Shown here piece by piece: positions 12,928 to 32,419 of a DNA stretch of 34,788 bases; positions within the stretch are counted from its first letter, which is position 1; each line of letters starts with the position of its first letter. The notes below the pieces were generated by a model, which saw only the letters and a program-made list of their open reading frames with translations, did not search any database and was not told the DNA's origin. Origin of the DNA: Candidatus Woesearchaeota archaeon (GTDB taxonomy: Archaea; Nanobdellota; Nanobdellia; Pacearchaeales; GW2011-AR1); NCBI GenBank assembly GCA_964365195.1, contig CAYIPM010000001.1:1-34788 (forward strand), in the 5' to 3' direction. A program made the translations under genes and the position numbers.

Positions 12928-13146
12928 ATGAAAAAAGAGATGAACATATTAGATGAGAACACAAGAAACGAACGATATAATTTTTTGATGATATTCTTAA
13001 TCATTGTTTTAGGAGTTATTGCTATTTTTGCCGCATCTGTTTTGGAATTTATATTTCCTTCTTTTACAGACATTCCTTATTTTAAAAAATACTATAAAAT
13101 GGTAAATTTTATAAAAATAAAAACTAAAAATACTATAAAATGGTAA
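12928..13146 (+). CDS. 72-aa membrane-anchor fragment paralogous to the N-terminus of the giant ORF
   Basis: MKKEMNILDENTRNERYNFLMIFLIIVLGVIAIFAAS compared with giant ORF MKKKEASDVEKKKRHEQYNLIMIFLIILVGVVVIFAAY. Confidence 0.45.
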   Translation: MKKEMNILDENTRNERYNFLMIFLIIVLGVIAIFAASVLEFIFPSFTDIPYFKKYYKMVNFIKIKTKNTIKW

Positions 13147-13736
13147 AAATTTATACTTTATTTAAGAAAAAGGTGATTAGCAGAATTAATGAATTAGAAG
13201 TGGGAAGATATATTAACTTTTTTGAAAGTTCTTATGTCAGGAATGCTGTTGCGAAAACCACACACTTCAGTGTGCGGATGAGCATTCCTGAGCATCCTAA
13301 AGTCGCACAAACTGCGGACTTTAGTCCGCAGAATTTTCAGCGACTTTTTGATACTGATAATTTAGAACATTGTAAAAAAACAATCGAAGAGTTTCCTCGA
13401 TGGAGCATCATTTCTGGCTATTATGCCCTGCATGATATAACTAAATTGTTTATAGCAAAAAAATTTCAGATAAAAATAGATTTTAAAGTGCATGCAACTA
13501 CGATTATAGTATTGAGGGCATTATTAAAAAATAAAGAGTTGAGTCAGTCTTTAAACAATGGATATAGGGAATTTTTGCTTCTCGCCAATGATTTGGAAGA
13601 AGCAAAAAAAGAAAGAACAAAGGTGCAATATTATACTGGCAGTGCATTTTTGAAGGAAGAATATAGAAAACGAGCAAGAATTTTTTACAAAGATGTATTG
13701 CTCTATATACATAAAATAAAGGAGCTTGTAGCATGA
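13140..13736 (+). CDS. HEPN-like protein (upstream partner of the third NTase)
   Basis: 198-aa helical protein with ATGA overlap to the NTase gene. Contains SGYYALHDITKLFIAKKF. Carries a palindrome-rich, GC-richer in-frame segment at 13261..13331. Confidence 0.4.
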   Translation: MVKIYTLFKKKVISRINELEVGRYINFFESSYVRNAVAKTTHFSVRMSIPEHPKVAQTADFSPQNFQRLFDTDNLEHCKKTIEEFPRWSIISGYYALHDITKLFIAKKFQIKIDFKVHATTIIVLRALLKNKELSQSLNNGYREFLLLANDLEEAKKERTKVQYYTGSAFLKEEYRKRARIFYKDVLLYIHKIKELVA

Positions 13737-14290
13737 TCGGCACACTTGATAAAGATGTAATAAAAGTATTGACGGTTTTCGGAGTTTCTCCTGGATCTCA
13801 TCTTAAACGTACGCTTATACAGGAGAAAACCAACATTAATAACATTATTCTTAACAAAACTTTATTCAAGCTTGTTAATCTTACTATTTTAAAGAAAGAA
13901 AAAAATTATTATTATCTTAATTTTGAAGAAAAAAGTAGTAAAACTCTTTTAGCCCTTATTCAAGCGCATTATACAAAATTAAAACATCTTCCTTTGCGGG
14001 AATATTTTATTATTTTAGACATTTATTTTGAACTTTTATCTTTTGCAAATATTTCGGCAGTTTATTTATTTGGCAGTTACGCAAAACTTATATTTACTGA
14101 GAAATCTGATATTGATATTGCAATTATTACTGAGGAATCTGATAAAAAGGCACTCAAATCTTCTCTGCATACACTAGAAAAGAGACATAACAAAACTATT
14201 GAATTACATTTTTTTGGCAAAGATTTTTATAAAAATAAACGAGATCCTTTAGTTAAGGACGTAGTAACACATGGAGTGCAATTGATTTAA
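13733..14290 (+). CDS. wHTH-fused minimal nucleotidyltransferase
   Basis: LFGSYAKLIFTEKSDIDIAII NTase motif with an N-terminal wHTH-like region. Confidence 0.7.
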   Translation: MIGTLDKDVIKVLTVFGVSPGSHLKRTLIQEKTNINNIILNKTLFKLVNLTILKKEKNYYYLNFEEKSSKTLLALIQAHYTKLKHLPLREYFIILDIYFELLSFANISAVYLFGSYAKLIFTEKSDIDIAIITEESDKKALKSSLHTLEKRHNKTIELHFFGKDFYKNKRDPLVKDVVTHGVQLI

Positions 14291-14319
14291 TAATAAAAAT
14301 CCAGAAAAAAGATGAAACA

Positions 14320-17300
14320 ATGAAAAAAAAAGAAGCGAGTGATGTGGAGAAAAAAAAGAGACATGAACAATATAATTTGATAATGATTTTTTTAATTATC
14401 TTAGTTGGAGTTGTGGTTATTTTTGCTGCGTACACCATTTCAACATTCTCTTCAAGCGAATCAATCGATACCAACGTCACCCAAGAAAATAATTTTTCGC
14501 ATCTGACAATTAACAATGATGTTGCGCCTTACAATAGTTTAGTGTTGTATATGTCGTTTGATGAGAATTTTTCAAGATATGCAAATGTTTCATATGATTA
14601 TTCGGCGAATGGGAATGACGGAAGATTTATATTTAATAATGGAACGAGTAAATATAATTCGACTGGATTGTATGGAGGAATGGTTAGTTTTGATAATGAT
14701 GGAGATTATATTAATGTGAGTACTGCAAATAATTTAGATTTTGGATTATCTCCTTTTGCAATTAGTATGTGGGTATTAGCAGGTGATCCTACTGATAACT
14801 TAGACGGATTTCTTTCTAAAGATAATTATGCAGGAGGTACTACTTATGTTGGGTATCTCTTAAATATTCAAGCAGGTCCTCGTTGTAGTTTTGAAACGAG
14901 AAATATTACTGGTGGCGTTGGTCCTGATTCGAGGGTATTTAGCATAGCCACAATTTCAAGTAATGTCTGGACACATATCGTCGCTGTGAGAAATGCAACC
15001 TCTCCTGCAGCATTGCAAATTTTTGTCAACGGAGTGCTTGATAATTATACTATTGAATCGAGTGCAACAAATGTTACTAATAATGCGTCGCTTACATTAG
15101 GTGTTATTAATTCTTTCACACCCCTGCAATTCTTCAACGGTTCCATCGACGAAGTCATGATATTTAATTCTTCATTAAATTCTAGCGAGATATTAAAAAT
15201 ATATCAAAATCAATCTAGCAGATTTAAAAATCCTGGCAAGCAGGAATTAAAAGCATTTAATACGACGCTGACAGCTGGCTGGATTCGTGTGCAGGAAGAG
15301 GATCAGCAATTATTCAGCACTAATTTGACAAAACGAATTGGACAATGGAATGTTAGCAAAGGATACAAAGATTGGGATTTCACAGCGAATACGTATGGAA
15401 GTTTTGATGGGGTGAATGATTATGTGGATTTGGGAAATACTCTGCCCTTTGATTTTAATACTCCATTTACCATTTCTGCATGGATTAAGCATTCTATGAC
15501 TTCAAGTATTAATTTTATTAGTAAGCAAGAAAATTCTGGTAACTATAGAGGTTATGGATTAGGAACGGCTGTTAGTGGTAAATATGAGTTCTTTATTTAC
15601 AACAATGGAGGAATTACAGTTGATGCTTCTGCCAATCACAATGATGGCCAATGGCGCCATGTGTTATTTACATATTCGGGAAATAGTGATGCAAATGGAG
15701 TCACTTTTTATCTCGATGGCAACCCAGCCGCGTCTACCATCGTGACAAACACTTCTGTAGCTAGCATTCTAACTACGGCTTCATTGCAATTAAATGGTCG
15801 TGCCGGAGCGAATAATTTATTTGCTGGCTCCATAGACGAAGTCCGCATTTACAACCGAAGCTTGAATGCAACAGATATTTTAGAAATTAATGCATCGGGT
15901 AGAAGTGCAAATGCTTCAATAAATTCAACAGGGTTAGTTTTATGGATGCCATTTGCGGAAGATGGATATGTGAATGATAAGGTATTAGTTGCGGATAGAA
16001 GTGGATTAAATAATGATGGTGTGCGAAATAACGGAACAGATTATGGTGGGGAAAATTTAGTGAATGGCTCTTTAGTTTTGTATATGCATTTTGATAATAT
16101 CTCGACAGTAGGAGAGAATGATACGCTTGTTAAGGATTGGAGTGGGAGGGGGAATAATGGGACTGCTTTCAATGGTGTGCGGGTGAATACGACTGGAAAA
16201 TATGGGGGAGCGATGACGTTTGATGGGGTGGATGATTATGTGAATGTAACCCATAATAGTATATTTAATATTAATAATAGCATAACTCTTTCTGCATGGG
16301 TGAAAACCATTGATGGAACTAGTAATTATATTATAACAAAAAATGAGGATTCTTGGTTTCTCGCTATTGGTGCTGATGCTTCAACAACAAATAAGTTTTC
16401 ATTCTTTTTAACTCCTTTTTCTTTAGTGTGGTTAGGAAGTAGTTCTGATATAAATGATGGAATATGGCATCATGTTGTAGGGACATATAATGGTTCAGTT
16501 AAGAGTGTATTTGTTGATGGAATACAAGAAAATAGTACGAATATAACTGGGGCAATTGGTACAGGTGCATCTTCCGTACTAATAGGACATCGCCCTCTTT
16601 TAAGTGCTTATTTCAACGGCTCCATCGACGAAGTCATGATATTCAACCGTTCGCTTTCAGCATCGGAGATTACAAAATTGTATATAAAAGGTCGAGCAAA
16701 ATTCAACTATACTGATTATCAGCATACAAGCAATGAATATTTACGAGTAGATAAAGATTCAACGATGTGCATACTTGATTATAGATTTAATGCAACTAAT
16801 TATACTAATCCGTTTTATACGCCGTTATTGTTTACGAGTTCAGCAAACCCTTTGAATATCAGCGATGATACTATTTCACCAAGTGTTATAATAAATGCAC
16901 CAGCAAATGCAACTATAGGCACACGAAATATAACATTTAATATAACTGCAACAGATGGGGCTGTTGTTGATAATTGCACGTATTCCATAGATACTATTAT
17001 TAATGTTTCATTAACAAATTCAGTTGCAAATGATTATACTCATACCAATTCATCTTTAGGAGAAGGTTCTCATACAGCAAGATTCTATTGCGCAGATGCC
17101 TCAAATAATATAAATAACACAGAAACGAGAACTTTTTATGTTGATGCTCCGCCCTTAATTACTATTACATTTCCAACAAATAACTCTTTTTATAATTATA
17201 ATGTTTCAGTCATTAATTACACATACTCTGAAATTAATCCAGGCAGTTGTTGGTATTCTACTGATAAGGGATTTACTAATTCATCGACTGTTGCAATGGG

Positions 17301-20300
17301 AACAAATTTCTCTAGTGTTACATCATTAGTTGATGCAAATAATTGGACAGTGTATTGCAATGATAGTTCAAACAGATTAAACTCTACCATCGTTAGCTTT
17401 GTGAAAGATTTAACATTTCCTCAAATTGATTTTGATTCTCGAACACCTGCGAATGCAACTGTTACTCCCAATACGACGGTGATTGTGAATATTTCAATTG
17501 TTGAATTATATCCTGATGAAATAAAATATAATTGGAACGGAACAAATTTTACTTTGATGAATGATTCGCTTGTTCTGTTTATGAATATGGATAATCGCTC
17601 GTCGCTGGGGGAGAATGATACACTTGTTGCTGATGTGAGCGGGTATTGTTATGATAATGAGACGGAGATTTTGACACTTGAAGAAGTTGATTGTGGAGAT
17701 TATCTTGAAGAAATTGAGAATGGGAATTATTATGTTGATGATGAAAATATAATTATTGGGAAAAGAAATGAAAATTTAATACAAGATAAAAATTATGATG
17801 GAAGCATTGAGAATGAAAAAAAGAAAGTGGGTTCAAACAGAATAGTTAAACCCAACCGATTGATACACGATTATACTTATTGTAATGATAAGGAGTATTT
17901 AAATATTTCTGTTCATTTGAATGAAAACGTCGGGGTGGCAGAATGGTTATTACAACCGCTTGATACACGGTGCCCTTCGGGGTTTGTGGGTTCGATTCCC
18001 ACCCCTGACGGCTTGTTTGAAAATTCTCAAAAATGTTATATCAAATCATGGAACTATTTTGTTGAATTAGATGGCGATGAGAAAGTTATGACGCTTGATT
18101 CTTCGACGGGCGAGAAAGAATGGCAAGTGCCGACGGAAAGGCAGGAATTTGAAAATAATGGGGAGATGTATTCGATAAAAACTATTGATGAAGAGGGGAA
18201 GGAAGGGGAGTTAGTGGTGAGCGAGAAACATAGGGTTTATACTGCATCTGAAAGTTTTTTTAATTCTGTTGATACTTCTTTAGTTGAAATTCCAAAGCCA
18301 ATGTTAAATAATAAAACTTCATATGTCCATAATTTACAGCCTTTGGATACACACAATGCAATAAACTCTTCATCTTTTGAATGGTTTTTTAATAATTGTT
18401 TTGCCTTTGGTAATGAAACTTTATATTCTTCTAAAGGAACAAATGTTATTCTTTTAAAAATGAGTTGTACAAATGTATCAAATCTTTTTTCAGATAGTTT
18501 TGTTTTAGACAGTAATTCTTTCTTATGTCTTTCAAATTCTTCTTTAAGTTTCAAAGGTGCCAATAAATCAAGTTGGGAATTAAATACAATTTCTAAAATA
18601 TCTCCTTGTGAGATAAGTATTCGAAATAAAATGTTTGAATCCAGAACAACGGTAAGGGGCATCTATAATAATCCTCTTTTGACTAAATCATCATGCATTG
18701 ATTTTTTGACTTTTTCTGATAATTCATCAGCATCTTTTTGGGTAAATTGTGATTCTGATATAATCTCTTTAGCGAGTGTTAATTCCAGTTTATTTGAAAA
18801 TTCTTTGAGTGTTTTTGATAATGCTCGTTCAAATTCTTTCTTAAATACTTCGGGTATTTCTACTTTAATAGATATTTCAGCCATAGAAAATTCTATGAAT
18901 ACTGATTATAAAAAACTTTCTATCGAAGACTTCTCATTGCAGCCTGTTAGTGAAATGTATGAAGAGTTTACTAACAGTAAAGAAATTTATTTCTTGGATT
19001 CAGAAAATAATCCTGTTCGCGTTTCATCAATTGAAAAAATTCCATATTCAGGAAAAATGTATGATGTTGATGTAGAGAATGATATTGTTCTAGTAAGGAG
19101 AAATAATGGAGCTTCTAAAATAAATAATCAATTACTTAAAAATAAATCATCTCTTCTTGATATAAATCCTGTCATGATGGTCAAAATCTTCAAAAATAAT
19201 AGTATCACCTTTTACAGAAAAGAGAAGAACAAAACTTCCAATTTGAACTCTTTTAAAGTTACTCAAATCATGCCTAAGATTCTTGAAATGCATGATAGCA
19301 ATAATGTTCATTTCAGCAATTTGAGTTATCTTTTTTTGTACAGCGAAAAACAAAGGAAAGTCTTTCTTTTTGAGTTTTCTCAAGATGTCGTCAATTTTAG
19401 AAGTGTCTATCTTCATAATGAGTCACAGAATTTATTAAATTCATCTACTGTCATTGATTTGCCTGATAATTTTTTAGAAGATTTTAATTTTTCTACATAT
19501 TTTTCTTTTAATTCAAATTCATCAACAGGATACCAATCGATTTTATCACAGAATTCCTGGTCATCTAATGATAAAGTTCCTGATTGCATGAATTTTTCAA
19601 ATATAGACTGTTTCATTAATCTAATTACTGCTTTTGATAATAATTCAAAATCTAATTTTATGGAATTATCTGATTTAAGTAACATTTCTGCCATAAAAAA
19701 TGATAAGAGTAATGGTTATTTAAGTTTTTCTATTGGAGAGTTTAGTAATCTTATAAATAGTGGGGAAGAGGAGGCAAGCAAAAGAAAAGAAACTAACGCA
19801 GACGATAGTCATTTTGAAAAAGCAAGTTCAGAAGCTTTTGCTTCTGAAGAGACAGGAATTTGGAGCGGAAATAGCAATAATGGGACTGGGGTGAATGGAG
19901 TGAAGGTGAATACGACTGGAAGATATGGGGGAGCATTTACGTTTGATGGTAAGGATGATGTGATAAATACAACTTTATTATTTAATTCCACACAAGGAAC
20001 ATGGTCTGCATGGATTTCTGTTCCGAGTTTTACACTTGAAGGTGGATTTGGTAGACGTGTTTTGCATCAATCAGATAATGCAGGAAATCATGAAATCAAT
20101 TTAAATACTAATGATAATTCACGTGTACGATGGAGTGGTTATGGAACAAGTTATGTATGGAATTTTAACTCTAATGAAACGTTATCAACAAATACGTGGT
20201 ATCATATTGTAGGGACATATAACGGTAGCTATGCGGCTTTATATCTTAATGGACAATTATCTAATAGTTCAACACAAACTGGACCTGTTGGTGATGCAAA

Positions 20301-26300: not shown

Positions 26301-29300
26301 TAAATCTTTCTCACTACAACCGATACCAGATGTTTACAATGACTTTGAAAATGGCGAAGAAATTTATTTCTTGGATTCAGAAAATAATCCTGTTTTAGTT
26401 AAGAGCATTGAAAAAATTCCTTATTCAGGAAAAATATATGATGTTGATGTGAAGAATGATATTGTGCTGGTCCGCCGCGCGGACAGCGACGGGAATTCTG
26501 TTGCAGTGTGGAGCGGGAATAGTAATAATGGGACACTGATTCGAGCTGGAACTAATAAACCTGTTATAAATACTACCTTCTGTAAATATGGCAATTGCAT
26601 GACGTTTCATGACTTGAATGATTCATTGAATGCATCGACTGGAGTGGGGCTACTTTTAGGAAATGGCTCAACAAATTTTTCAATAAGTTTGTGGTATTAT
26701 GAAAGTGTTAATAATGAAAATAAAGGATTAGTGTGGTTTCGTCCAGCAAATCAAGATAGAAGTGTTTCACTTTTTAGACAATCAAATAAAGTAATTGCAA
26801 CTCTCAATGATTTAAGTGTAGTTATGAGATCAAATACGACGGTGACACAGAATCAGTGGTATCATGTTGTATTAACCTATGATGGCAGTGTTGCTTCTTT
26901 ATTTCTTCAAGGAGTCATTGATAATACTACTATATATTCTACTCCTGTTAATTTTTCAGGATCTAGTTTTATCGTGGGAACATATTATAGTTTAGTAGAT
27001 AGTAGTTCTTTCAACGGCTCTATCGATGAAGTTGGTGTTTGGAACAGAAGTCTTTCACGAGAAGAAATCAAACAACTCTATCAATCTCGCTTGAAAAAAT
27101 TGGTTTCGGCAAACGGCGGCGTGAATGACACGTACTTGCAGATGGTGAATTCTTCGACGGCTGGAAATTTCACGGTGAATTTGCGTTCAGATAACATGAG
27201 CTATTGGAATGTTGCTCTTAATCAAAGCGGGCTTGTATTGGGATTGCGGCAAAGTTATAATTATAATATGAGCGCGACAGATAGAGCAAACACCATAAAT
27301 AATTCTGGATTGCGCACGGTGTTTGGCAATTCTAAGCCAGAATTTATCAGTGTGGGTTATGTTGCTAATGATAGTGAGGGAGTTGATCCATCGACGATAA
27401 TTGTGGTGACAGTTAATGTAACTGATGTTGATAGTAATTTTGATACGGCGATTTTACAATGGAAAAATATGAGCCAGATCTGGACAAATGTGACAATGGT
27501 GAATATAACTGCAAAGGGAGTGTACACGATGGTGAATACAAGTTTTACCACACCTGCGTATGATACTAATGTTACGTTTCGAATTTTTGCGAATGACACC
27601 TTAGGTGATTCTAATTTTTCCCTTAATTATACTTTGAATAGCTCGTATGATTGCACCTGGGCCGCAACGGCGGATTTAGGCGCTATTGCCGGCTGGGACG
27701 AAAATAAACGCGTCGGAAATATTTCCATTAATAATACGGGAGATTCAGCGTTTGTAACTGCAAATTGTTCGCTTGATTTTCGTTTGAATTATAATTTGGC
27801 AGAAGGAAGAATTTATTTTAATCAAGATTATGTGAAACCGTCGAATACTATCACGCTGTCTGCAAAACAAAATACGAGCATTGTGGTGAATGCAAGCTTT
27901 TTATCAGAAATTAAAGAAGAAAGTGTTAACATTACTGTTGATGAATTTCGCTCACGATCCAATATGACTGAAATTAATACAACATTGACTCTTGTTTCAA
28001 ATCAGGCAGGGCCGTATTTATATCAGAAAATAGCTGCAGCACCGACATCGATTGATTTACAATCAGGCAATAATTTCAGCTTGCAAGGATACATTCGAAA
28101 TTTAATGGGAACACTGACGGCAAATGTAACTAATAGCGCGTATAACGTTAGTTTTAATTGGAGTGTTCCTAGTGGCTTTACCAATTTATCCGGCGAGCTT
28201 GAAGTGAGTTTAGTTAATATGACCAATAACAGTTTAATTTATAATAATGTGAATGTGAGTTTTAGTAGTCTTGCGTCGATGACTGATGGTGTTAAAACAT
28301 TTTATTTGTATGCACAGGGATATAATATCACTGGCGGAGCAATTAAAGATGCGTTGAATAATACATTATTAACGCAGCAAATGAATATTACTTTCCTTTG
28401 CTATGCCACGAGTGATTCTGTTTGTGTTACGGATTGCGGCAGCACGCAGGATCCTGATTGCTCTGCTGCGGGTTCATCGTCGAGCTCGTCTTCGGGCAGC
28501 GGCGGCGGAGGGGGCAGCTCTACGAAAAAAGAGGAAAAATCAGAAGCAACTTTTGAATTATTGCGTGGAAAAAATCAGGAATTTATTTTACCCATCACTA
28601 ATAAACTTACTAGCTCAAAAGAAAACATTGTTATCAGTGTGAGCGGGCTTAATGCGCAGTACATACAAATAATTCCTGATCATCTTGACTTTATTGCATC
28701 GGGCAGCTCGCGTGATGTTCGGGTCAAAATCACTGCGCCGGATTATTTTGTTGCAGGCACCTATACATTGACATTTTTTATTAGCGGTGATTTAGTTTTT
28801 AACGGCAGCCGCACGCAGTTTTCTGAACGCAAATTTGTGACTCTTTATGTAATTGAAATGTCGCGCGATGAAGCCGACGAGTTTTTAAGGAATGCTGAAA
28901 AATTAGTTGATGAAATGAAAAAAGCAGGCATGATTGTTGATAAAGCAGATGCATTATTTTCTGCAATAGAAGAAACTCATGCCGCAGTTAATTTTTTAGA
29001 GATGAAGAATCATTATGAACAACTCAAGGAAATTCACGACGCTGCATTTGCTTCTTTAAAAATTATCACCGATCTTAATGAAAAGATACAACAGGCAGAA
29101 AAACAGGGAATTGATGTAAGTGAAACTAAAAAATTATTTTATGTTGCTCAGGCAGCGTATAGCCGCGGTGATTATATCCTCGCGATTAAGCAGCTTAAAG
29201 AAGCGCAATTAAGCTATGCCCTTGAAACAAAAGGAGAATTTAATGTTTTGTATGCCATCAAAAATAATCCGGGAAAATCTGCCGCAGGTTTTCTTTTAGC

Positions 29301-29787
29301 TTTATTAATTGGATTTGGCTCTTCTTTTGCAGTGCGACTGCATATCTATAAATCCAAATTAAAATATTTAAGAGAAGAAGAAAAATTATTGCTTGGTCTG
29401 ATGCGCGCGGTGCAGATTGAATGTTTCCAGAATAATAAAATGTCAATGGAAGAATATGATCTCGCGATGAATCATTATGAATTAAAATTACGGGAGACTA
29501 TCGAGGATAAAATTAGAATTGAGACACAACTTGCGAGCTTGTTTAAAATAGGCGGCAGAAAAAAAGCGCTGTTTGAAGAACGAAAGCGGCTTATTGAGAT
29601 GATTAAGAAAGCGCAGAGTGATTATCTTAAAGAAGGAAGCCTTGAAACGCGCGTGTATGAAAATATGCTGAAATCGTATTCTTCCCGCTTGTCTGAAGTT
29701 GAAGAACACATTGCGACACTGGACGCCTCTGAAGCGCTGGAAGAAAATAAATTTATTAAAAAAATCTTAGCGAGGTTTGGATTATGA
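14320..29787 (+). CDS. Giant (5155 aa) surface protein: N-terminal signal anchor, 8 LamG/Laminin_G_3-like repeats, Ig-like modules, Ser/Gly linker, coiled coil, C-terminal TM anchor; interrupted by three intein-like elements
   Basis: Single open frame. The motif (N/A)(G/A)(S/T)(I/M)DEVxhaN(R/S/K)(S/T)h, where h = hydrophobic and a = aromatic (Y/F/W), recurs 8 times. The domain-start motif D-x-SG-x-G-NNGT...FDG.DDY recurs. N-x-S/T sequons are very frequent. Ser/Gly linker at 28471..28521. TM helix around 29281..29340. Confidence 0.85.
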   Translation: MKKKEASDVEKKKRHEQYNLIMIFLIILVGVVVIFAAYTISTFSSSESIDTNVTQENNFSHLTINNDVAPYNSLVLYMSFDENFSRYANVSYDYSANGNDGRFIFNNGTSKYNSTGLYGGMVSFDNDGDYINVSTANNLDFGLSPFAISMWVLAGDPTDNLDGFLSKDNYAGGTTYVGYLLNIQAGPRCSFETRNITGGVGPDSRVFSIATISSNVWTHIVAVRNATSPAALQIFVNGVLDNYTIESSATNVTNNASLTLGVINSFTPLQFFNGSIDEVMIFNSSLNSSEILKIYQNQSSRFKNPGKQELKAFNTTLTAGWIRVQEEDQQLFSTNLTKRIGQWNVSKGYKDWDFTANTYGSFDGVNDYVDLGNTLPFDFNTPFTISAWIKHSMTSSINFISKQENSGNYRGYGLGTAVSGKYEFFIYNNGGITVDASANHNDGQWRHVLFTYSGNSDANGVTFYLDGNPAASTIVTNTSVASILTTASLQLNGRAGANNLFAGSIDEVRIYNRSLNATDILEINASGRSANASINSTGLVLWMPFAEDGYVNDKVLVADRSGLNNDGVRNNGTDYGGENLVNGSLVLYMHFDNISTVGENDTLVKDWSGRGNNGTAFNGVRVNTTGKYGGAMTFDGVDDYVNVTHNSIFNINNSITLSAWVKTIDGTSNYIITKNEDSWFLAIGADASTTNKFSFFLTPFSLVWLGSSSDINDGIWHHVVGTYNGSVKSVFVDGIQENSTNITGAIGTGASSVLIGHRPLLSAYFNGSIDEVMIFNRSLSASEITKLYIKGRAKFNYTDYQHTSNEYLRVDKDSTMCILDYRFNATNYTNPFYTPLLFTSSANPLNISDDTISPSVIINAPANATIGTRNITFNITATDGAVVDNCTYSIDTIINVSLTNSVANDYTHTNSSLGEGSHTARFYCADASNNINNTETRTFYVDAPPLITITFPTNNSFYNYNVSVINYTYSEINPGSCWYSTDKGFTNSSTVAMGTNFSSVTSLVDANNWTVYCNDSSNRLNSTIVSFVKDLTFPQIDFDSRTPANATVTPNTTVIVNISIVELYPDEIKYNWNGTNFTLMNDSLVLFMNMDNRSSLGENDTLVADVSGYCYDNETEILTLEEVDCGDYLEEIENGNYYVDDENIIIGKRNENLIQDKNYDGSIENEKKKVGSNRIVKPNRLIHDYTYCNDKEYLNISVHLNENVGVAEWLLQPLDTRCPSGFVGSIPTPDGLFENSQKCYIKSWNYFVELDGDEKVMTLDSSTGEKEWQVPTERQEFENNGEMYSIKTIDEEGKEGELVVSEKHRVYTASESFFNSVDTSLVEIPKPMLNNKTSYVHNLQPLDTHNAINSSSFEWFFNNCFAFGNETLYSSKGTNVILLKMSCTNVSNLFSDSFVLDSNSFLCLSNSSLSFKGANKSSWELNTISKISPCEISIRNKMFESRTTVRGIYNNPLLTKSSCIDFLTFSDNSSASFWVNCDSDIISLASVNSSLFENSLSVFDNARSNSFLNTSGISTLIDISAIENSMNTDYKKLSIEDFSLQPVSEMYEEFTNSKEIYFLDSENNPVRVSSIEKIPYSGKMYDVDVENDIVLVRRNNGASKINNQLLKNKSSLLDINPVMMVKIFKNNSITFYRKEKNKTSNLNSFKVTQIMPKILEMHDSNNVHFSNLSYLFLYSEKQRKVFLFEFSQDVVNFRSVYLHNESQNLLNSSTVIDLPDNFLEDFNFSTYFSFNSNSSTGYQSILSQNSWSSNDKVPDCMNFSNIDCFINLITAFDNNSKSNFMELSDLSNISAIKNDKSNGYLSFSIGEFSNLINSGEEEASKRKETNADDSHFEKASSEAFASEETGIWSGNSNNGTGVNGVKVNTTGRYGGAFTFDGKDDVINTTLLFNSTQGTWSAWISVPSFTLEGGFGRRVLHQSDNAGNHEINLNTNDNSRVRWSGYGTSYVWNFNSNETLSTNTWYHIVGTYNGSYAALYLNGQLSNSSTQTGPVGDANRTVAIGRINFQVNGHFNGSIDEVQLWNKSLSSTEIYQLYASNLYKFNQTQWYLTVNQSKNTTNGLDNGTYTYYAYSKDNGGNANMTDVRTITSDTEAPNATLLTPVNNSFVTNGSQNFSANLTDTYGLKNATLNVYPSANNSWLEFDGVDDSVNMGTTGGNVSGNITISVWVFPAATQNDYARIISKENAGGPVNQGWGIEQDFNTINKYYFFWYGSAGGGSGSGSNITSTLVANKWNHFVITLSNSNVIQYVNGVQTNSSTGLGTMVQQPTASLLLGTWFGDTTRFWNGTMDEVRVYNRSINATEVLDIYRSGLLRNPTLNSTGLVSWWDFEQASGTILVDQVGLNNGTINGSTWRNFHRQFFSFASGTTSALVGTVLGLLEGTYNWFYQLFDMAGNIFTSSNFSVTIDTVYPLVSFDSRTPANATTTPNVSVTINISIVEQYLDELKYNWNGTNYTYMNDSLVLLMNFDNRSALGENDTLVADVSGYCYDNETEILTLEEVDCGDYLEEIENGNYYVDDENIIIGKRNENLIQDKNYFDRDQLKNNEKEKEVFDVTPKALLVMQDNVLTDYNNYEINNYINFSVDNHHAEDASEALLVMQQTDTLRLNGLSGSTPDWGDSALENSPTCYVEKWKYFNDLSGTEKVMTLNQKTGEQEWQLPKEKQEFENTGEMYSITTIDEEGNKGELVVSEKHRVYASEGIGIISNVSGNNLIRLPSNSDDFISFNSDSNAVIRSWVLSCGILNHTTENIFSFENFKAFEKCRSLVISTLCSDFENVANDPFESSFGLEIMSYPCSFKNFSSLNFTFSSRKNLTERELDIVTSFKNICGILQSSSNMSLCQRRIILENFIKSHSSPQHFQDLPDHDSGSLKSWSSSTDFTVCNNIGVNFDSHCIMNRQDLYKSFSLQPITAVYKDFENGEDIYFLTEDNTPVLITSIEKVPYSGKMYDVDVKNDIVLVRRADSDGEYGSAVWSGNSNNGTAINGVKVNTTDCKYGNCDTFDGINDYINSTVVSSNINNKTLSAWVKLAYLGQGGGGLVTVQTLDGNIFDSIVYNETGLGWGFGSNVYRRTAWSGLVETSTDWIHIAATYTNGSYVLYRNGIAIVTNTTLSVLNFNSSTAHVVIGRRHTTGGANTYLNASIDEVYVWNRTLSASEVYELYASNLYKFNQTQWYLTVNQSKNTSSGLDNGTYTYYAYSKDNGGNANMTDVRTITSDTEAPNATLLTPVNASFVTNGSQNFSANLTDNLGLKNATLYVYPSANNSWLEFDGVDDVINITRNETLEPTKNLTVSVWIRHTTNTRYVLSKHYDGGASSYAIDVADDNVQFYVRNGTGSSHFRNAISGTATNGNTWHHVVGTVNDSSVAIYVDSVLKASTAITGAIVYNSGNLSIGNFVDTPASFSFNGSIDEVRIYNRTLSSTEITEIYKSGLLRNASINNTGLVSWWDFEQATGTNLVDQVGLNNGTISGATWRNFHRQFFSFSSGTTSALVGTIFGLLDGAYNWFYQLFDYAGNIFTTSNFTTTIDTSAPQIDFVTPTLSNGSAANSDFLVNVTISEQYLSNISWYWNNTRFVYGENFSLVSPENISRGLVLLYNFDNESTYGENDTNVFDFSGYCYDNETEILTLEEVNCGDYLEEIENGDYYVDDGEIIIGKKNENLIQDKNYFDRNQLKNNEKEKATNAASMVTHNFTGYVSNNENKYLNFSFDKTAVGDDPVASVVMRRSNKPNLHGYPGSIPGWSESPTLDNLKNSENKCYIKSWKYFNELSGDEKVMTLDSSTGEKEWQVPTERQEFDEDKEMYEIVMEDANGEESNLVVSEKHRVYFSDFDNNIPFNPKIVNPISFPDSDCLAIMPEPKSTLIAFSGFPNEMYNTSASSSYSHDDLSDFPINSSIVSFYFLTYLNKKQLGQNRLSETALCMQHLDACCLLQESCQTFLSQEENLHLLVEQYKDCLAFPKYYPLGFSSQDDYCTYVSIVFQSVLSEHHSLKKQFSSDYCNKNELYKSFSLQPIPDVYNDFENGEEIYFLDSENNPVLVKSIEKIPYSGKIYDVDVKNDIVLVRRADSDGNSVAVWSGNSNNGTLIRAGTNKPVINTTFCKYGNCMTFHDLNDSLNASTGVGLLLGNGSTNFSISLWYYESVNNENKGLVWFRPANQDRSVSLFRQSNKVIATLNDLSVVMRSNTTVTQNQWYHVVLTYDGSVASLFLQGVIDNTTIYSTPVNFSGSSFIVGTYYSLVDSSSFNGSIDEVGVWNRSLSREEIKQLYQSRLKKLVSANGGVNDTYLQMVNSSTAGNFTVNLRSDNMSYWNVALNQSGLVLGLRQSYNYNMSATDRANTINNSGLRTVFGNSKPEFISVGYVANDSEGVDPSTIIVVTVNVTDVDSNFDTAILQWKNMSQIWTNVTMVNITAKGVYTMVNTSFTTPAYDTNVTFRIFANDTLGDSNFSLNYTLNSSYDCTWAATADLGAIAGWDENKRVGNISINNTGDSAFVTANCSLDFRLNYNLAEGRIYFNQDYVKPSNTITLSAKQNTSIVVNASFLSEIKEESVNITVDEFRSRSNMTEINTTLTLVSNQAGPYLYQKIAAAPTSIDLQSGNNFSLQGYIRNLMGTLTANVTNSAYNVSFNWSVPSGFTNLSGELEVSLVNMTNNSLIYNNVNVSFSSLASMTDGVKTFYLYAQGYNITGGAIKDALNNTLLTQQMNITFLCYATSDSVCVTDCGSTQDPDCSAAGSSSSSSSGSGGGGGSSTKKEEKSEATFELLRGKNQEFILPITNKLTSSKENIVISVSGLNAQYIQIIPDHLDFIASGSSRDVRVKITAPDYFVAGTYTLTFFISGDLVFNGSRTQFSERKFVTLYVIEMSRDEADEFLRNAEKLVDEMKKAGMIVDKADALFSAIEETHAAVNFLEMKNHYEQLKEIHDAAFASLKIITDLNEKIQQAEKQGIDVSETKKLFYVAQAAYSRGDYILAIKQLKEAQLSYALETKGEFNVLYAIKNNPGKSAAGFLLALLIGFGSSFAVRLHIYKSKLKYLREEEKLLLGLMRAVQIECFQNNKMSMEEYDLAMNHYELKLRETIEDKIRIETQLASLFKIGGRKKALFEERKRLIEMIKKAQSDYLKEGSLETRVYENMLKSYSSRLSEVEEHIATLDASEALEENKFIKKILARFGL
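17929..18010 (+). tRNA. tRNA-like cloverleaf 1 (82 nt, long variable arm, anticodon-loop TTGATAC), translated in frame within the intein
   Basis: Acceptor GTCGGGG/CCCTGAC. D arm GCAG-AATGGTTA-TTAC (weak). Anticodon arm ACCGC-TTGATAC-ACGGT. Variable arm GCCC-TTCG-GGGT-TT. T arm GTGGG-TTCGATT-CCCAC. Discriminator G. Confidence 0.55.
18237..18662 (-). CDS. PIN-domain toxin (VapC-like), antisense within intein 1
   Basis: MPLTVVLDSNILFRIL (N-terminal PIN Asp) and a later acidic DEEFIALC. 141 aa. Starts directly after the upstream small ORF. Its stop TAA is the complement of the sense GTT TAT of block B. Confidence 0.65.
   Translation of the reverse strand: MPLTVVLDSNILFRILISQGDILEIVFNSQLDLLAPLKLKEEFERHKKELLSKTKLSEKRFDTFVQLIFKRITFVPLEEYKVSLPKAKQLLKNHSKDEEFIALCVSKGCKLWTYEVLLFNIGFGISTKEVSTELKKLSDAV
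18663..18884 (-). CDS. Putative antitoxin (73 aa, helical, K/E-rich) of the PIN toxin
   Basis: Small ORF abutting the PIN start (0-nt gap). TATA-like element about 26 nt upstream. Confidence 0.5.
   Translation of the reverse strand: MAEISIKVEIPEVFKKEFERALSKTLKEFSNKLELTLAKEIISESQFTQKDADELSEKVKKSMHDDLVKRGLL
18906..18916 (-). promoter_or_regulatory. TATA-box-like element for antisense cassette A
   Basis: The minus strand reads GTTTTTTATAA, centred about 26 nt upstream of the ATG at 18884. Confidence 0.45.
19147..19416 (-). CDS. RelE/ParE-family toxin, antisense within intein 1
   Basis: ILRKLKKKD..QKKITQI...KNLRHDLSNFKRVQIGSFVLLFSVKGDTIIFEDFDHHDRIY follows the RelE/StbE pattern. 89 aa, with 4-nt overlap to the upstream ORF. 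Confidence 0.65.
   Translation of the reverse strand: MKIDTSKIDDILRKLKKKDFPLFFAVQKKITQIAEMNIIAIMHFKNLRHDLSNFKRVQIGSFVLLFSVKGDTIIFEDFDHHDRIYIKKR
19413..19694 (-). CDS. Putative antitoxin (93 aa) of the RelE-like toxin
   Basis: Translationally coupled (ATGA) to the RelE-like gene. TATA-like CTTAAATAA about 26 nt upstream. Confidence 0.45.
   Translation of the reverse strand: MAEMLLKSDNSIKLDFELLSKAVIRLMKQSIFEKFMQSGTLSLDDQEFCDKIDWYPVDEFELKEKYVEKLKSSKKLSGKSMTVDEFNKFCDSL
19716..19724 (-). promoter_or_regulatory. TATA-box-like element for antisense cassette B
   Basis: The minus strand reads CTTAAATAA, centred about 26 nt upstream of the ATG at 19694. Confidence 0.4.
22081..22162 (+). tRNA. tRNA-like cloverleaf 2 (82 nt; the best-formed copy)
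   Basis: Acceptor GCCTCAG/CTGGGGC (7 bp including one T-G). D arm GCAT-TGTTGGTA-ATGC. Anticodon arm GCAGA-CTGATAC-TCTGC. Variable arm GTCT-TAAC-GGAC-TT. T arm TCGGG-TTCGACT-CCCGA. Discriminator G. Confidence 0.6.
22392..22766 (-). CDS. DUF5615 (Mut7-C/PIN-like) toxin, antisense within intein 2
   Basis: From the internal ATG: MSNSRSVKFLRDENVKLRLEKFLKEHGYDI...VLITNDRHF, a typical DUF5615 pattern. The track ORF extends to 22814. Its stop again lies in the complement of block-B GTT TAT. Confidence 0.7.
   Translation of the reverse strand: MSNSRSVKFLRDENVKLRLEKFLKEHGYDIISKPKELSNGSLATFSKSEQRVLITNDRHFSNALKFSKEKIFSVVWLRIPQDKTQLLITAFESLLKEIKSSEFEGNLIKLFPDTFEIIPIPSEA
22744..22983 (-). CDS. DUF433 antitoxin-like protein, antisense within intein 2
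   Basis: INPYIVADSEICGGTPTFKGTRIMVWQILEMLRGGMALNEIFKDYPSLTKAHIAAALQYA matches the DUF433 consensus. Confidence 0.8.
   Translation of the reverse strand: MRVEINPYIVADSEICGGTPTFKGTRIMVWQILEMLRGGMALNEIFKDYPSLTKAHIAAALQYAADILKGSDNVQFPLR
23005..23015 (-). promoter_or_regulatory. TATA box for antisense cassette C
   Basis: The minus strand reads GATTTATATAA, centred about 26 nt upstream of the ATG at 22983. On the sense strand it encodes the conserved LYKS. Confidence 0.5.
25438..25519 (+). tRNA. tRNA-like cloverleaf 3 (82 nt; degenerate anticodon stem)
   Basis: Acceptor GATCCAG/CTGGAGC (6 of 7 bp). D arm GCAT-CAGTGGTA-ATGC. Anticodon arm CAGGT-CTAATAA-ACCGA (only 3 bp). Variable arm ACCT-TCAC-GGGT-AT. 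T arm CCGGG-TTCGATT-CCCGG. Confidence 0.5.
25764..25973 (-). CDS. DUF2283-like small protein (antitoxin-like), antisense within intein 3
   Basis: WEYDEEADVLYISFGKPEKAISVDLGSGIIARQSESGKLIGFTILG matches the DUF2283 pattern. Its stop lies in the complement of block-B GTT TAT. Confidence 0.7.
   Translation of the reverse strand: MEELIGKSDKSSWEYDEEADVLYISFGKPEKAISVDLGSGIIARQSESGKLIGFTILGLKGILLSKSLK
25961..26272 (-). CDS. Putative toxin (about 104 aa, family not recognised) coupled to the DUF2283-like gene
   Basis: From the ATG at 26272 (the track ORF starts at a GTG at 26314). LKHMYNNHPEM...ILETLNNPYIV...GFVLTAFY. 13-nt overlap with the downstream gene. TATA about 28 nt upstream. Confidence 0.4.
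   Translation of the reverse strand: MKIAFSVNGVPIRLTEKQLKHMYNNHPEMKSQEDNILETLNNPYIVQQGDVGSLLAIKKFDKTPVTNNKHLNVAYKELSQTDGFVLTAFYSSKLKNRKILWKN
26296..26306 (-). promoter_or_regulatory. TATA box for antisense cassette D
   Basis: The minus strand reads GATTTATATAA, centred about 28 nt upstream of the ATG at 26272. On the sense strand it encodes LYKS. Confidence 0.5.
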
Positions 29788-30641
29788 ATTGCGTGAATAG
29801 CAAGCGGCTTTTTTTTGTTTTTTGTAGCAGCGTATTTTTATTGTATGCTTTTTCTTTTGTCAGCGCTGCCGAAGAAAAAAATACAAGTGTTGAAGAGCAA
29901 GCAACACACTGCCTGAACACATCGCGAGCGATTTTTGAGGAGTTATCTATGGCACATTTCTCGACGCAACGTGTTAATGATACTTTGAAGGAAATGGAAC
30001 AACTGTACTTAGCGCAAACCATTTTGAAAAGCAGAAAATCAAAAACTGATTTTTCTATTATTTTACCGTACTGCAGGGAAATAGCACAATTGCAGGAAAA
30101 TGCTTTTAAGGCACGAGATGAATTTACAGCTCTTCAGCGATTTTATAATGAATCGTTTGAAGAGGGCGTTAGTACCGGCAGCGTTACTACAATGATTGAA
30201 CAGATTCGCTATGAAATTGTGAGTGAACGGTATGAGCGTGTCGGCGATTTAATTGATAGAGCGTATGAAGAAATTATCACGGTAAAATCCAGCAACACTG
30301 CACTCAATCTTTTTTACAAAACGACAACGCGGACTATCGGCGATTTTATTTTTGAGCACAAATATTTTTTGATTGCGCTTGTTGTTGCGGGCATTATTTT
30401 ATTTTACCTCTATAAGAAACCGTTTGCGCGCTGGTATATTCAGAAAAAAATCACAAATCTAGACATTCGCAAGAAAACAATCAAGAAATTAATTGCACAT
30501 ACACAACAGGAATATTTTACCGATGGCACGCTTTCTGAAAGCATTTATACCATCCGCGTGCGAAAATTTGGAGAACTTATCCGCGACATTGACCGGCAAT
30601 TGCCGCTTCTGCAGGAGGATTTAGAAAGACTTAAAAAATGA
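29784..30641 (+). CDS. Hypothetical membrane protein (N-terminal signal/anchor, coiled coil, internal TM)
   Basis: 285 aa with ATGA overlap to the giant ORF stop. Hydrophobic N-terminus FFVFCSSVFLLYAFSFVSA and TM helix YFLIALVVAGIILFYLY. Confidence 0.6.
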   Translation: MNCVNSKRLFFVFCSSVFLLYAFSFVSAAEEKNTSVEEQATHCLNTSRAIFEELSMAHFSTQRVNDTLKEMEQLYLAQTILKSRKSKTDFSIILPYCREIAQLQENAFKARDEFTALQRFYNESFEEGVSTGSVTTMIEQIRYEIVSERYERVGDLIDRAYEEIITVKSSNTALNLFYKTTTRTIGDFIFEHKYFLIALVVAGIILFYLYKKPFARWYIQKKITNLDIRKKTIKKLIAHTQQEYFTDGTLSESIYTIRVRKFGELIRDIDRQLPLLQEDLERLKK

Positions 30642-31241: not shown

Positions 31242-31577
31242 ATGAAAAGGGGCATGAATACAAAAGGATTTGAATTGGCAATGAGCACACTTGTCGCTCT
31301 TATTTTAGGAGTTTTAGTATTAGGTGTTCTTATTTTTGGCTTTAGTTATGGATGGGATGCATTTTGGGGAGATATTAAAGGATTTCTTGGCGGGCGCGAT
31401 AATGTGCAGCAGGTTTTAGATTCATGTGAACGCGCTTGTTTACAAGAACAGCAGTATGATTATTGTACTTTATTGCGAACTGTCATCGTCAATGAAAAAC
31501 AAATCAAGCCATCTCCGACATGCCAGAATTTATCAATACTTTATGATTTTAGCTGCTCGAAGGTGTCATGCAGGTAG
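31242..31577 (+). CDS. Cys-rich pilin-like protein (paralog of 8692..9063)
   Basis: MKRGMNTKGFELAMSTLVALILGVLVLGVLIFGF is a class III signal-like N-terminus. The C-terminal Cys pattern is shared with the 8692 gene. The track start at 31236 is a TTG. Confidence 0.7.
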   Translation: MKRGMNTKGFELAMSTLVALILGVLVLGVLIFGFSYGWDAFWGDIKGFLGGRDNVQQVLDSCERACLQEQQYDYCTLLRTVIVNEKQIKPSPTCQNLSILYDFSCSKVSCR

Positions 31578-32419
31578 GCACGATGATTTCGAATGAATCC
31601 TTTTTTTTAATTGCGGCTGGTTTTATTTGGATAATTGGAGCAATTTTACAAGATTTACGACGACGCGAAGTTGACAATATTTGGAATTTTTCGCTTATTG
31701 GCATTGTCCTTGCGTATCGATTGGCAGTCAGTGTTTTGAATAGCGAGCCGTGGTTTTTTATCAACGGTTTATTAGGATTATTTATTTTTGTCATTGTAGG
31801 AAATGTTTTTTACTACAGTCGGATTTTTGCAGGTGGAGATGCAAAATTACTTATTGCGCTCGGAATAATCTTACCTTTAAGTTTTGATTGGATGGTGAAT
31901 GCGAAAATTTTTGGCGCATTCATTGTTCTTTTTTTATTTGGCGGCTCCTTGTATGTCTTTATCTGGTCTTTAGTGCTGGCGGGCTTTCATCGACGAGCAT
32001 TTATGCGGGAATTTGTAAAACAAGCAAAGATGTATCGCTATTTTTTTCTGTATAGCTTTGTTTTCTTTGCAATTTGCATCGGCTTTTCATTTTATTTTTT
32101 TGTAGCACTTATTTTTGGAATTGTTTTTTTGTTTTTTCCTGTTTTATTTGTTTTTGCAAAAGCGGTAGAAGAAAGCTGTCTTGTACGGGCAGTTTCTGTG
32201 GCAGCATTGACTGAAGGAGAATGGCTTTATGAAGATATTTTTGTGAACGGAAAAAAAATACGCGCAACCTGGGAAGGTGTCACAAAACGAGAATTATCTT
32301 TAATTAGGGAAAAATACCGACGGAAAATTTTAATCAAACAGGGAATACCATTTACTCCGGGATTTCTACTAGGATTTATAGGTCTTATTTATTTTGGCGC
32401 AAGATTTGGATGGATGTAG
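31568..32419 (+). CDS. A24-family prepilin/preflagellin peptidase (PibD/FlaK-like) with C-terminal extension
   Basis: Multi-TM protein. First Asp region ILQDLRRREVDN and the second catalytic motif FAGGDAKLLIALG (GxGDxKL-type). Confidence 0.75.
   Translation: MQVGTMISNESFFLIAAGFIWIIGAILQDLRRREVDNIWNFSLIGIVLAYRLAVSVLNSEPWFFINGLLGLFIFVIVGNVFYYSRIFAGGDAKLLIALGIILPLSFDWMVNAKIFGAFIVLFLFGGSLYVFIWSLVLAGFHRRAFMREFVKQAKMYRYFFLYSFVFFAICIGFSFYFFVALIFGIVFLFFPVLFVFAKAVEESCLVRAVSVAALTEGEWLYEDIFVNGKKIRATWEGVTKRELSLIREKYRRKILIKQGIPFTPGFLLGFIGLIYFGARFGWM

Follow-up and report, generated by a model that had tools for sequence, protein, structure and literature searches.

Giant Host Gene and Its Three Inteins

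The window analyzed here is a stretch of 34,788 nt from a Candidatus Woesearchaeota archaeon (positions 1 to 34,788 of contig CAYIPM010000001.1, assembly GCA_964365195.1). It contains a giant open reading frame (ORF) for a protein with LamG repeats that is interrupted by three elements (17647-19872, 21769-23232, and 25144-26520). We identify these elements as putative inteins whose inserts hold two-gene cassettes of the toxin-antitoxin (TA) type on the minus strand and tRNA genes on the plus strand, while the reading frame of the host gene stays open throughout. Laminin_G_3 (concanavalin-like) repeats make up all four extein blocks (Pfam, 1.2e-67 to 5e-20). The product is regarded as a giant surface protein because it has hydrophobic segments at both termini and is rich in N-x-S/T sequons. 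The Hint domain of each intein appears to accommodate cargo at up to three positions: slot 1 follows the first strand, slot 2 follows block B and corresponds to the classical endonuclease position, and slot 3 separates the last two strands. The host gene and the inteins have the following features:

14320..29787, plus strand: giant host ORF, LamG-repeat surface protein of 5155 aa with N- and C-terminal hydrophobic segments
17647..19872, plus strand: intein 1, 742 aa, CYDNETEILT...IWSGN followed by S; tRNA module in slot 1, cassette A in slot 2, cassette B in slot 3
17647..17676, plus strand: intein 1, block A strand CYDNETEILT with the Cys1 nucleophile
18040..18240, plus strand: intein 1, second part of the Hint N lobe, ending with block B VVSEKHRVY
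18931..19101, plus strand: intein 1, Hint C lobe, FSLQP...YDVDVENDIVLVRR
19849..19872, plus strand: intein 1, terminal strand ETGIWSGN; Ser+1 from 19873
21769..23232, plus strand: intein 2, 488 aa; tRNA module in slot 1, cassette C in slot 2
21769..21798, plus strand: intein 2, block A strand
22195..22395, plus strand: intein 2, second part of the Hint N lobe including block B
23017..23187, plus strand: intein 2, Hint C lobe
23209..23232, plus strand: intein 2, terminal strand GSAVWSGN; Ser+1 at 23233
25144..26520, plus strand: intein 3, 459 aa; tRNA module in slot 1, cassette D in slot 2
25144..25173, plus strand: intein 3, block A strand
25567..25767, plus strand: intein 3, second part of the Hint N lobe including block B
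26308..26478, plus strand: intein 3, Hint C lobe
26497..26520, plus strand: intein 3, terminal strand SVAVWSGN; Ser+1 at 26521

In all three elements, CYDNETEILT comes straight after ...DVSGY of the host protein and ...WSGN straight before SNNGT. When DVSGY and SNNGT are joined, they restore the motif seen as DWSGRGNNGT in the uninterrupted LamG repeats of the same protein. Each element also has the catalytic set of Cys1, the block-B His (SEKH), the terminal Asn, and Ser+1. For structural modeling with AlphaFold2, the three variable stretches were cut out and the remaining cores were aligned with relatives from other genomes (see below). The cargo-deleted core is predicted to adopt the Hint fold (predicted local distance difference test, pLDDT, 93.1; predicted template modeling score 0.87), and all 45 matches of this model to PDB structures at E<=1e-3 (Foldseek) are Hint domains of inteins, bacterial intein-like (BIL) domains, or hedgehog proteins. 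The best structural match is the AceL NrdHF intein (E 7e-8, template modeling score 0.72-0.75), and the others include BIL domains, hedgehog, gp41-1, DnaB, and KlbA. In the AlphaFold2 model of full-length intein 3, the Hint segments have pLDDT values of 75-93 and the cargo-encoded segments values <50.

The intact elements gave no Hint or intein match in Pfam, a search of PDB sequences with the three full elements returned noise only, and a profile of the cores reached the KlbA intein in PDB at 1e-3. Searches of the elements against Pfam detected no homing endonuclease domain in the window. The original prediction, which had been made from the letters of the window, called the elements inteins, and this assignment is upheld by the Hint fold of the core, the catalytic residues, and the restored LamG motif. 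The three elements are predicted to be capable of protein splicing. The intein end and extein start, (V/I)WSGN-SNNGT, resemble the host motif DWSGRGNNGT (19861-19887, 23221-23247, and 26509-26535), and WSGN is kept in other host contexts as well.

Minus-Strand Toxin-Antitoxin Cassettes

The inserts contain four cassettes, A to D, on the minus strand, each composed of two genes with a TATA-like box upstream:

18237..18662, minus strand: cassette A toxin, PIN_2 domain, 141 aa; Pfam PF10130, 2.9e-21
18663..18884, minus strand: cassette A antitoxin candidate, 73 aa, no family; 45 homologues adjoin PIN toxins in related inteins
18907..18914, minus strand: cassette A TATA-like box TTTTTATA, centre 26 nt upstream of ATG; plus strand reads part of ...DYKKLS
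19147..19416, minus strand: cassette B toxin, RelE/YafQ/ParE-like, 89 aa; NCBIfam TIGR00053 (YafQ) 2.1e-10 and Pfam ParE 0.0097, both below cut-off
19413..19694, minus strand: cassette B antitoxin candidate, 93 aa, no family; 24 homologues form pairs with RelE-like genes
19717..19724, minus strand: cassette B TATA-like box CTTAAATA, centre 26 nt upstream of ATG
22392..22766, minus strand: cassette C toxin, DUF5615 (PIN-like, Mut7-C related), 124 aa from ATG; Pfam PF18480, 1.2e-13
22744..22983, minus strand: cassette C antitoxin, DUF433, 79 aa; Pfam PF04255, 5.6e-23
23006..23013, minus strand: cassette C TATA-like box TTTATATA, centre 26 nt upstream of ATG; plus strand reads the L-Y-K-S codons before FSLQP
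25764..25973, minus strand: cassette D DUF2283 protein, 69 aa, antitoxin-type partner; Pfam PF10049, 8.3e-11
25961..26272, minus strand: cassette D toxin-like ORF, 103 aa from ATG; weak match to PBECR3 (BECR-fold nuclease), PF18812, 0.0034, below cut-off
26297..26304, minus strand: cassette D TATA-like box TTTATATA, centre 28 nt upstream of the ATG at 26272

The two genes abut in cassette A (0 nt) and overlap by 4, 23, and 13 nt in cassettes B, C, and D, respectively, just as had been predicted; the value for cassette C counts DUF5615 from its ATG (MSNS...), a start that was inferred from relatives. All cassettes had been placed between block B and the Hint C lobe. This holds for cassettes A, C, and D; cassette B occupies slot 3, where it separates the final two beta strands (...DIVLVRR on one side of the cargo, ...IWSGN on the other).

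The proposed family assignments were borne out for PIN_2, DUF5615, DUF433, and DUF2283, which score above the Pfam cut-off, and were left below it for the RelE-like toxin; a profile built from 19 homologues of the latter reached RelE3 of M. jannaschii in PDB at 0.013. The toxin-like ORF of cassette D had been described as DUF4258-like; its only match is the weak one to PBECR3, and a relative scores 7.6e-4. Thus, cassettes A and C are predicted to encode toxins of known families, and the matches for cassettes B and D are suggestive of the same. The pairs are predicted to be active as toxins and antitoxins. A match to a CRISPR repeat at 26212-26245 was dismissed as noise (E 0.26, below the gathering score).

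In each cassette, a purine-rich stretch precedes the TATA-like box. A spacing of 26-28 nt between the TATA box and the ATG is expected for archaeal leaderless mRNAs. On the plus strand, the promoter bases read as (L/V)(Y/F)K(S/K)(F/L), just before FSLQP of the Hint C lobe, and in cassettes A, C, and D the TAA stop of the last gene is the TTA within GTT-TAT, the V-Y codons of block B. The cassettes are packed without spare DNA, since both promoter and stop fall within Hint-coding codons.

Open Host Frame Opposite the Cassettes

The frame of the giant ORF has 0 stops across the four cassettes, as originally predicted, versus 10-19 and 22-32 stops per cassette in the other two plus-strand frames; in extein DNA, the other frames stay open for at most 59-107 codons. 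For a measure of chance openness, the eight minus-strand protein sequences were held fixed and synonymous codons were redrawn from the codon usage of the window itself. The expected numbers of plus-frame stops per gene were 1.06, 3.34, 3.67, 0.84, 2.01, 3.46, 0.41, and 6.52, or ~21 in total against 0 observed, and the product of the per-gene probabilities of zero stops is <1e-12, so that the open frame is more than chance. Shuffling of synonymous codons within genes gave a probability of zero stops of 1, and is uninformative, for the RelE, DUF433, and DUF2283 genes, where the forbidden codons or combinations are already absent.

The RelE-like and DUF433 genes share the codon register of the giant ORF exactly, and they contain 0 TTA, CTA, and TCA codons, a point of the original prediction that was confirmed; the other six minus-strand genes make heavy use of TTA and TCA, and TTA is the commonest Leu codon otherwise in the window. 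The passenger translation had been described as rich in S, N, F, and L. Relative to the extein translation, it is enriched in S (17.8% vs 10.4%), F (8.9% vs 5.0%), and L (9.4% vs 7.6%), and its N content is about equal to that of the exteins (10.8% vs 11.1%). Ordinary genes at related loci have 5.5-10.4 stops per 140 codons in each antisense frame; this control probably includes a few unmasked cargo windows, so that its open fraction of 0-4.5% is an upper bound. Overall, ~2.3 kb of the window are constrained on both strands.

Two other accounts of the open frame were rejected. Removal of the cargo at the RNA level, as a bulge-helix-bulge intron, would abolish the need for an open frame, and an alternative genetic code is at odds with the use of TAA, TAG, and TGA as stops by genes of the window.

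The same locus is present in an independent NCBI contig, JBBSZF010000180.1 (assembly GCA_038044825.1), which corresponds to window positions 12744-29836 with 20 substitutions. None of these falls inside the elements, and the giant ORF is open in that contig too. The PGAP annotation of this contig calls the minus-strand genes and a 1397-aa fragment and leaves the giant ORF uncalled.

Related Inteins in Other Genomes

A protein search retrieved 20 relatives, one of which is named 'Hint domain-containing protein [archaeon]'; in several of them, the same core is split by 250-300 residues rich in Ser, Asn, Leu, and Phe. A scan of GTDB species representatives yielded 79 loci, almost all from metagenome-assembled genomes of Woese-, Pace-, Nano-, Alti-, and Aenigmarchaeota obtained in many independent studies. 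Among the 74 intein instances that could be delimited, 70 have their motifs in one stop-free frame and 4 show a frame change. The 69 distinct open inteins (87,798 nt), the majority of which belong to DPANN genomes, have 0 stops in the intein frame versus 2069 and 4173 in the other two plus-strand frames. Position 1 in the 44 relatives with a delimited N end is Cys in 43 and Ser in 1, the block-B His and the terminal Asn are invariant, WSGN is present in 68 of 69 relatives, and the +1 residue is Ser in 67 and Thr in 2 (69/69 Ser or Thr).

Homologues of the TA genes of the window are found in 56 of the 69 inteins. Pfam searches with 83 cargo ORFs of the relatives identified PIN_2 (19), PIN (6), DUF433 (6), DUF5615 (6), ParE (6), YafQ (3), DUF2283 (1), and PBECR3 (1). 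Thus, the search of related genomes for the same intein with other cargo, which had been suggested at the outset, revealed several TA families in the slots. Within delimited inteins, TA genes are antisense in 136 of 136 cases and sense in 0. The phase relative to the intein frame is fixed within each toxin family, with offsets of 2 mod 3 throughout for PIN, DUF5615, and DUF2283 and of 0 mod 3 throughout for the RelE type. When TA genes are compared pairwise in their own frame, differences fall at codon position 3 more than 1 and at 1 more than 2 (about 0.3/0.2/0.5 at positions 1/2/3; e.g., 0.32/0.19/0.48 for PIN), and therefore the minus-strand proteins are under purifying selection. Of 82 upstream regions, 27 have the TATA box centred exactly 26 nt from the ATG, a sharp peak, and 42 have it within 20-32 nt. 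Together, the resampling in the window and the stop-free frames of the 69 related inteins support the dual-strand selection on cassette DNA that the original prediction had put forward from codon patterns.

Distant members of the family (L072, L077, L079, L081, L082, and L083) have the slot behind block B filled by a LAGLIDADG_3 endonuclease domain that is in frame. The LAGLIDADG-bearing members come from Desulfonema (L072), the haloarchaeon Salinirussus (L079), an Asgard archaeon, Hadarchaeota, and some Woesearchaeota, where the host ORFs are of non-LamG type. We conclude from these relatives that the lineage began as an ordinary homing intein, in line with the earlier proposal that TA genes stand in place of an endonuclease.

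Some related cassettes (L021 4786-5004, L033 2522-2731, L047, and L063) have a third small upstream gene ending in ...RGEL. In these cassettes, a Shine-Dalgarno-like GGAGGT/AGGTGA is situated between the ...RGEL gene and the antitoxin ATG, and the promoter is located further upstream.

tRNA Genes on the Sense Strand

Slot 1 of each intein in the window carries a class-II tRNA gene, identified by ARAGORN and by the Rfam tRNA model RF00005 (gathering score 29), together with a TATA box and a degenerate partial tRNA copy:

17928..18012, plus strand: class-II tRNA gene 1, anticodon GAU, long variable arm, G73; slot 1 of intein 1; ARAGORN; Rfam 41.4 bits
17896..17903, plus strand: tRNA 1 TATA box TATTTAAA, peptide YLNIS; centre 28 nt upstream of the tRNA 5' end
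17838..17869, plus strand: degenerate partial copy, equivalent to tRNA 1 positions 12-42
22080..22164, plus strand: class-II tRNA gene 2, anticodon GAU; slot 1 of intein 2; ARAGORN; Rfam 50.1 bits
22042..22049, plus strand: tRNA 2 TATA box TATATAAA, peptide YINFS; centre 34 nt upstream
21974..22018, plus strand: degenerate partial copy, equivalent to tRNA 2 positions 3-57 with the anticodon stem deleted
25437..25520, plus strand: class-II tRNA gene 3, anticodon AAU, stems with two mismatched pairs; slot 1 of intein 3; ARAGORN; Rfam 35.7 bits
25399..25406, plus strand: tRNA 3 TATA box TATTTAAA, peptide YLNFS; centre 34 nt upstream
25344..25360, plus strand: degenerate partial copy, equivalent to the D arm of tRNA 3, positions 10-26

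The tRNA genes, the promoters, and the wide distribution of the arrangement are additions to the earlier reading of the window. The same type of tRNA is encoded in related inteins, in every case on the sense strand and variously in slot 1, 2, or 3 (loci L003, L005, L007, L013, L014, L017, L027, L037, L057, L060, L061, L070, L073, and L076). Comparison of 20 distinct tRNA copies revealed compensatory changes in 18 of 21 stem pairs. All copies have a variable arm of the long type and G73, and the anticodons are GAU in most and AAU, CAA, GAC, or GAA in the rest. The TATA box is centred ~27-35 nt upstream, where the host frame reads Y(I/L)N(I/F)S, and in one tRNA subtype complementarity between leader and trailer lengthens the acceptor stem. 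The partial copies lie 60-100 nt upstream of each full tRNA, ahead of its promoter, which may point to a tandem duplication that later decayed or to recombination involving tRNA sequences.

We know of no class-II tRNAs with non-Ser/Leu anticodons described in archaea. The anticodons of the intein tRNAs read Ile, Leu, Val, or Phe codons, which is at odds with their Ser-type set of class-II structure and G73. G73 and a long variable arm are identity elements for seryl-tRNA synthetase (PMC7609411), and these features suggest that the intein tRNAs may be serylated.

Cargo Turnover

The first 150 nt of inteins 1 and 2 (17647-17796 and 21769-21918) are 100% identical, and they are 90% identical to those of intein 3 (25144-25293). 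Elsewhere the three inteins compare quite differently: the extein flanks are 52-76% identical, the other Hint parts 72-80%, and the cargo is unrelated. This pattern indicates gene conversion or very recent copying restricted to the 5' end of the inteins. Among the related loci, a given cassette type is found in slot 1, 2, or 3, depending on the locus. At L084 (124-1179), the same DUF5615/DUF433 cassette is found antisense, its opposite frame open, behind the N lobe of a canonical but unrelated intein (Pfam Intein_splicing 4e-7); the plus frame closes there at a stop inside the C lobe, and this copy is possibly decaying.

Proposed Mechanism and Alternative Explanations

We consider it very likely that these are endonuclease-less class-1 inteins of one family that carry antisense TA operons and sense tRNA genes, with the host frame selected to stay open. 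All three would be inserted at the same position in three LamG repeats of the giant surface protein, whose source is a DPANN archaeon of the Nanoarchaeota type, and the insertion-tolerant loops of their Hint domains would serve as safe harbours for independent selfish gene modules. The antisense modules would be complete type II TA operons, each with its own archaeal promoter (B recognition element and TATA box) placed for a leaderless mRNA, and each class-II tRNA gene on the sense strand would be expressed from its own promoter. The host mRNA would be translated through the cargo, because both Hint lobes must be part of one polypeptide before excision. Selection would then clear stops from the host frame while the minus-strand proteins remain under ordinary purifying selection, which would make the cargo DNA dual-coding. 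The passenger product, enriched in Ser, Phe, and Leu, would be a probably disordered linker between the Hint lobes and would be discarded with the intein when it excises itself and the LamG repeat is rejoined. The antisense orientation is explained by the stops that sense-strand genes would bring into the translated mRNA, truncating the intein, and it may also shield the host transcript from terminators of the cassettes. The role of the cargo is probably addiction: the TA pairs would penalize intein loss, as conversion to an intein-free allele would kill the cell, and would thus offset the missing endonuclease.

Several observations weigh against parts of this proposal. The penultimate residue is Gly rather than the usual His in all members of the family; a penultimate His is not universal among active inteins, and Gly is no bar to membership. 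Curated profiles match the cores and their relatives under the gathering scores (Intein_splicing at 1e-3 to 4.6e-6, Hint_2 at 0.011, and Hint at 0.037); these matches, though weak, agree with the fold, and since the family is divergent, we let the evidence of the fold outrank their sub-threshold scores. The antitoxins of cassettes A and B match no library family, and the family matches of the cassette B and D toxins are weak and below cut-off. The proposed addiction role draws on analogy with the TA cassettes of plasmids, islands, and integrons. Expression of the host gene might be disturbed by the sense tRNA promoters and T-runs and by the antisense promoters that face it head-on. Finally, at L004 (GCA_053534655.1, JAIYKS010000021.1) a DUF5615/DUF433 and a PIN/antitoxin cassette lie between ordinary genes (2481-3479 and 3936-4808), where, without any Hint domain, their antisense frames run for 332 and 290 codons free of stops; therefore, the open frame outlives, or does not strictly need, an intact intein. 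The L004 cassettes look like ex-intein fragments: they retain short by-eye relics of block B and of the LYKSFSLQP junction, and a hidden Markov model (HMM) search for Hint remnants at this locus found none.

The host is an extracellular repeat protein, a niche that is typical of non-splicing BIL domains and not of inteins, and this raises the alternative that the Hint domains act in BIL-like autoprocessing, cleaving the surface protein or giving branched products without splicing, with the same arrangement of cargo. Variable extracellular repeat proteins are the usual hosts of BIL domains, Foldseek ranked BIL domains (6y75, 6tmm, and 2lwy) beside inteins, and the Gly in place of the penultimate His would fit as well. 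However, the +1 Ser/Thr and the terminal Asn are invariant in the 69 relatives and Cys/Ser1 is conserved, the LamG motif returns at its exact length and sequence once the element is excised and the flanks are ligated, and family members with LAGLIDADG domains reside in non-LamG hosts in the manner of classical inteins, so that we regard autoprocessing without splicing as quite improbable. It is also unlikely, if somewhat easier to imagine, that the inteins are as proposed and the TA cassettes serve a purpose other than addiction, either regulating the host gene by antisense transcription and RNA pairing or acting in abortive infection against viruses with the intein as a neutral landing site. 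The strict antisense orientation and the strong predicted promoters that face the host transcript agree with such roles, and TA systems often serve as defence modules. However, frame compatibility alone already predicts the orientation, and several unrelated TA families share the slots, which suggests selfish cargo instead of a dedicated regulator.

Two further readings would deny that both strands are coding, and we give almost no credence to either. The giant ORF could be a pseudogene broken by mobile DNA, its open frame being due to chance or to an assembly artefact; PGAP left this ORF uncalled in favour of the TA genes and the 1397-aa fragment, and 4 of the 74 related inteins have motifs in different frames. 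This reading is effectively refuted by the vanishing probability of zero stops in the window (<1e-12), by the 69 inteins of independent assemblies with 0 stops in the intein frame and thousands in the others, and by the second assembly with the same open ORF. Conversely, the minus-strand ORFs could be spurious shadows of a real plus-strand domain, as biased coding can yield long antisense ORFs and extein DNA contains stop-free antisense runs as long as 107 codons. The HMM and substitution data effectively refute this view too: the minus-strand products have full-length Pfam matches down to 1e-23, differences in the minus frame follow the codon-position order 3 > 1 > 2, promoters stand at a fixed distance, and the plus-strand translation has no family match and a pLDDT <50.

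A broader version of the proposed mechanism is possible, although the balance of our judgment is against it. DPANN inteins in general could be a cassette platform, with modules that were made stop-free once per family in one phase and that move between slots, between inteins, between unrelated intein families, and occasionally into intergenic DNA. The TA modules would make the intein unlosable, and the tRNAs would be functional, either as Ser-charged mistranslators or as decoys or spares for tRNAs attacked by RNases. If true, this would be a new way for selfish genes to inhabit an essential reading frame, as well as a naturally occurring example of long dual coding in antisense that selection maintains.

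Comparison with Known Systems

The LAGLIDADG-bearing inteins of the family share with those of the window the core CYD(D/N)xTEILT, GWKxF...KV(A/M)TLN, and ...VRRNG..(W/F)(S/C)GN followed by S/T, the slot after block B, and the in-frame mode of insertion. Their cargo is one sense-strand, in-frame domain of the intein polypeptide, whereas the inteins of the window hold opposite-strand two-gene operons with their own promoters, a plus-strand reading that forms a non-functional linker, and two further slots. Mini-inteins and inteins with non-endonuclease inserts, such as the tandem-repeat inteins of Trichodesmium, lack an endonuclease and tolerate a long unstructured insert in the endonuclease loop. 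The window inteins resemble them in the missing endonuclease and in the tolerance of the Hint fold to insertions. The inserts of such known inteins encode no independent genes, and in the literature searched none is described with antisense operons or tRNA genes, whereas those of the window inteins carry both. In BIL domains, the +1 nucleophile is usually absent, and they mostly cleave instead of splicing. They share the Hint fold (Foldseek matches 2lwy and 6y75) and the variable surface or secreted hosts with the window elements, which differ from them in the invariant Asn-Ser junction and in the restored host motif.

The cassettes are similar to the TA stabilizers of plasmids, genomic islands, and chromosomal integrons in being compact promoter-antitoxin-toxin units of unrelated families on a common platform, with addiction as the presumed role. 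Unlike in those systems, the platform is a protein-splicing element in an ORF, so that the cassettes are stop-free on the other strand too; no integrase or attC-like repeats were seen. Class-II tRNAs with anticodons for neither Ser nor Leu are known as the allo-tRNAs of bacteria, whose genes are often located beside TA systems and mobile elements (PMC5389517), and as the nev-tRNAs of nematodes (PMC3333845). The intein tRNAs differ from both in being archaeal, in having an ordinary 7/5 acceptor/T stem and a paired -1 base, and in their location inside a translated sense-strand ORF.

The original prediction had suspected that inteins with TA or antisense cargo were new. Full-text searches of PMC open-access articles and bioRxiv preprints turned up no article describing TA, antisense, or tRNA cargo in inteins, subscription-only literature being outside the search. 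Thus, the components are known, and the architecture and the scale of the dual-strand constraint are undescribed in the literature searched. To our knowledge, inteins have been thought to carry homing endonucleases only, or nothing. For intein biology, the arrangement presents the intein as a vehicle for other selfish elements, with independently transcribed operons and tRNA genes, and addiction is suggested as a route by which endonuclease-free inteins could persist. In ~2.3 kb here, and in tens of kilobases in the relatives, selection acts on one strand for protein function and on the other only to keep it free of stops, which offers a clean natural system for antisense overlapping coding, a phenomenon that is rare and disputed in prokaryotes. 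Since PGAP called the TA genes and truncated the host ORF, giant surface proteins and inteins of DPANN archaea are systematically mis-annotated. The class-II tRNAs with non-Ser/Leu anticodons may bear on genetic-code ambiguity, and for engineering purposes the family defines three insertion-tolerant loops of a compact Hint domain.

Genomic Context of the Host Gene

Of the 20 differences between the window and contig JBBSZF010000180.1, 19 are packed into 48 nt (14490-14537) of the first LamG region; this cluster is a short recombination tract or a strain variant. The neighbours of the giant ORF encode a KaiC-like ATPase, a nucleotidyltransferase, and a type IV prepilin peptidase (9621-10478, 13733-14290, and 31568-32419) together with many small unannotated ORFs, which suggests a surface-appendage locus. 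The neighbourhood of locus L003 resembles that of the window.

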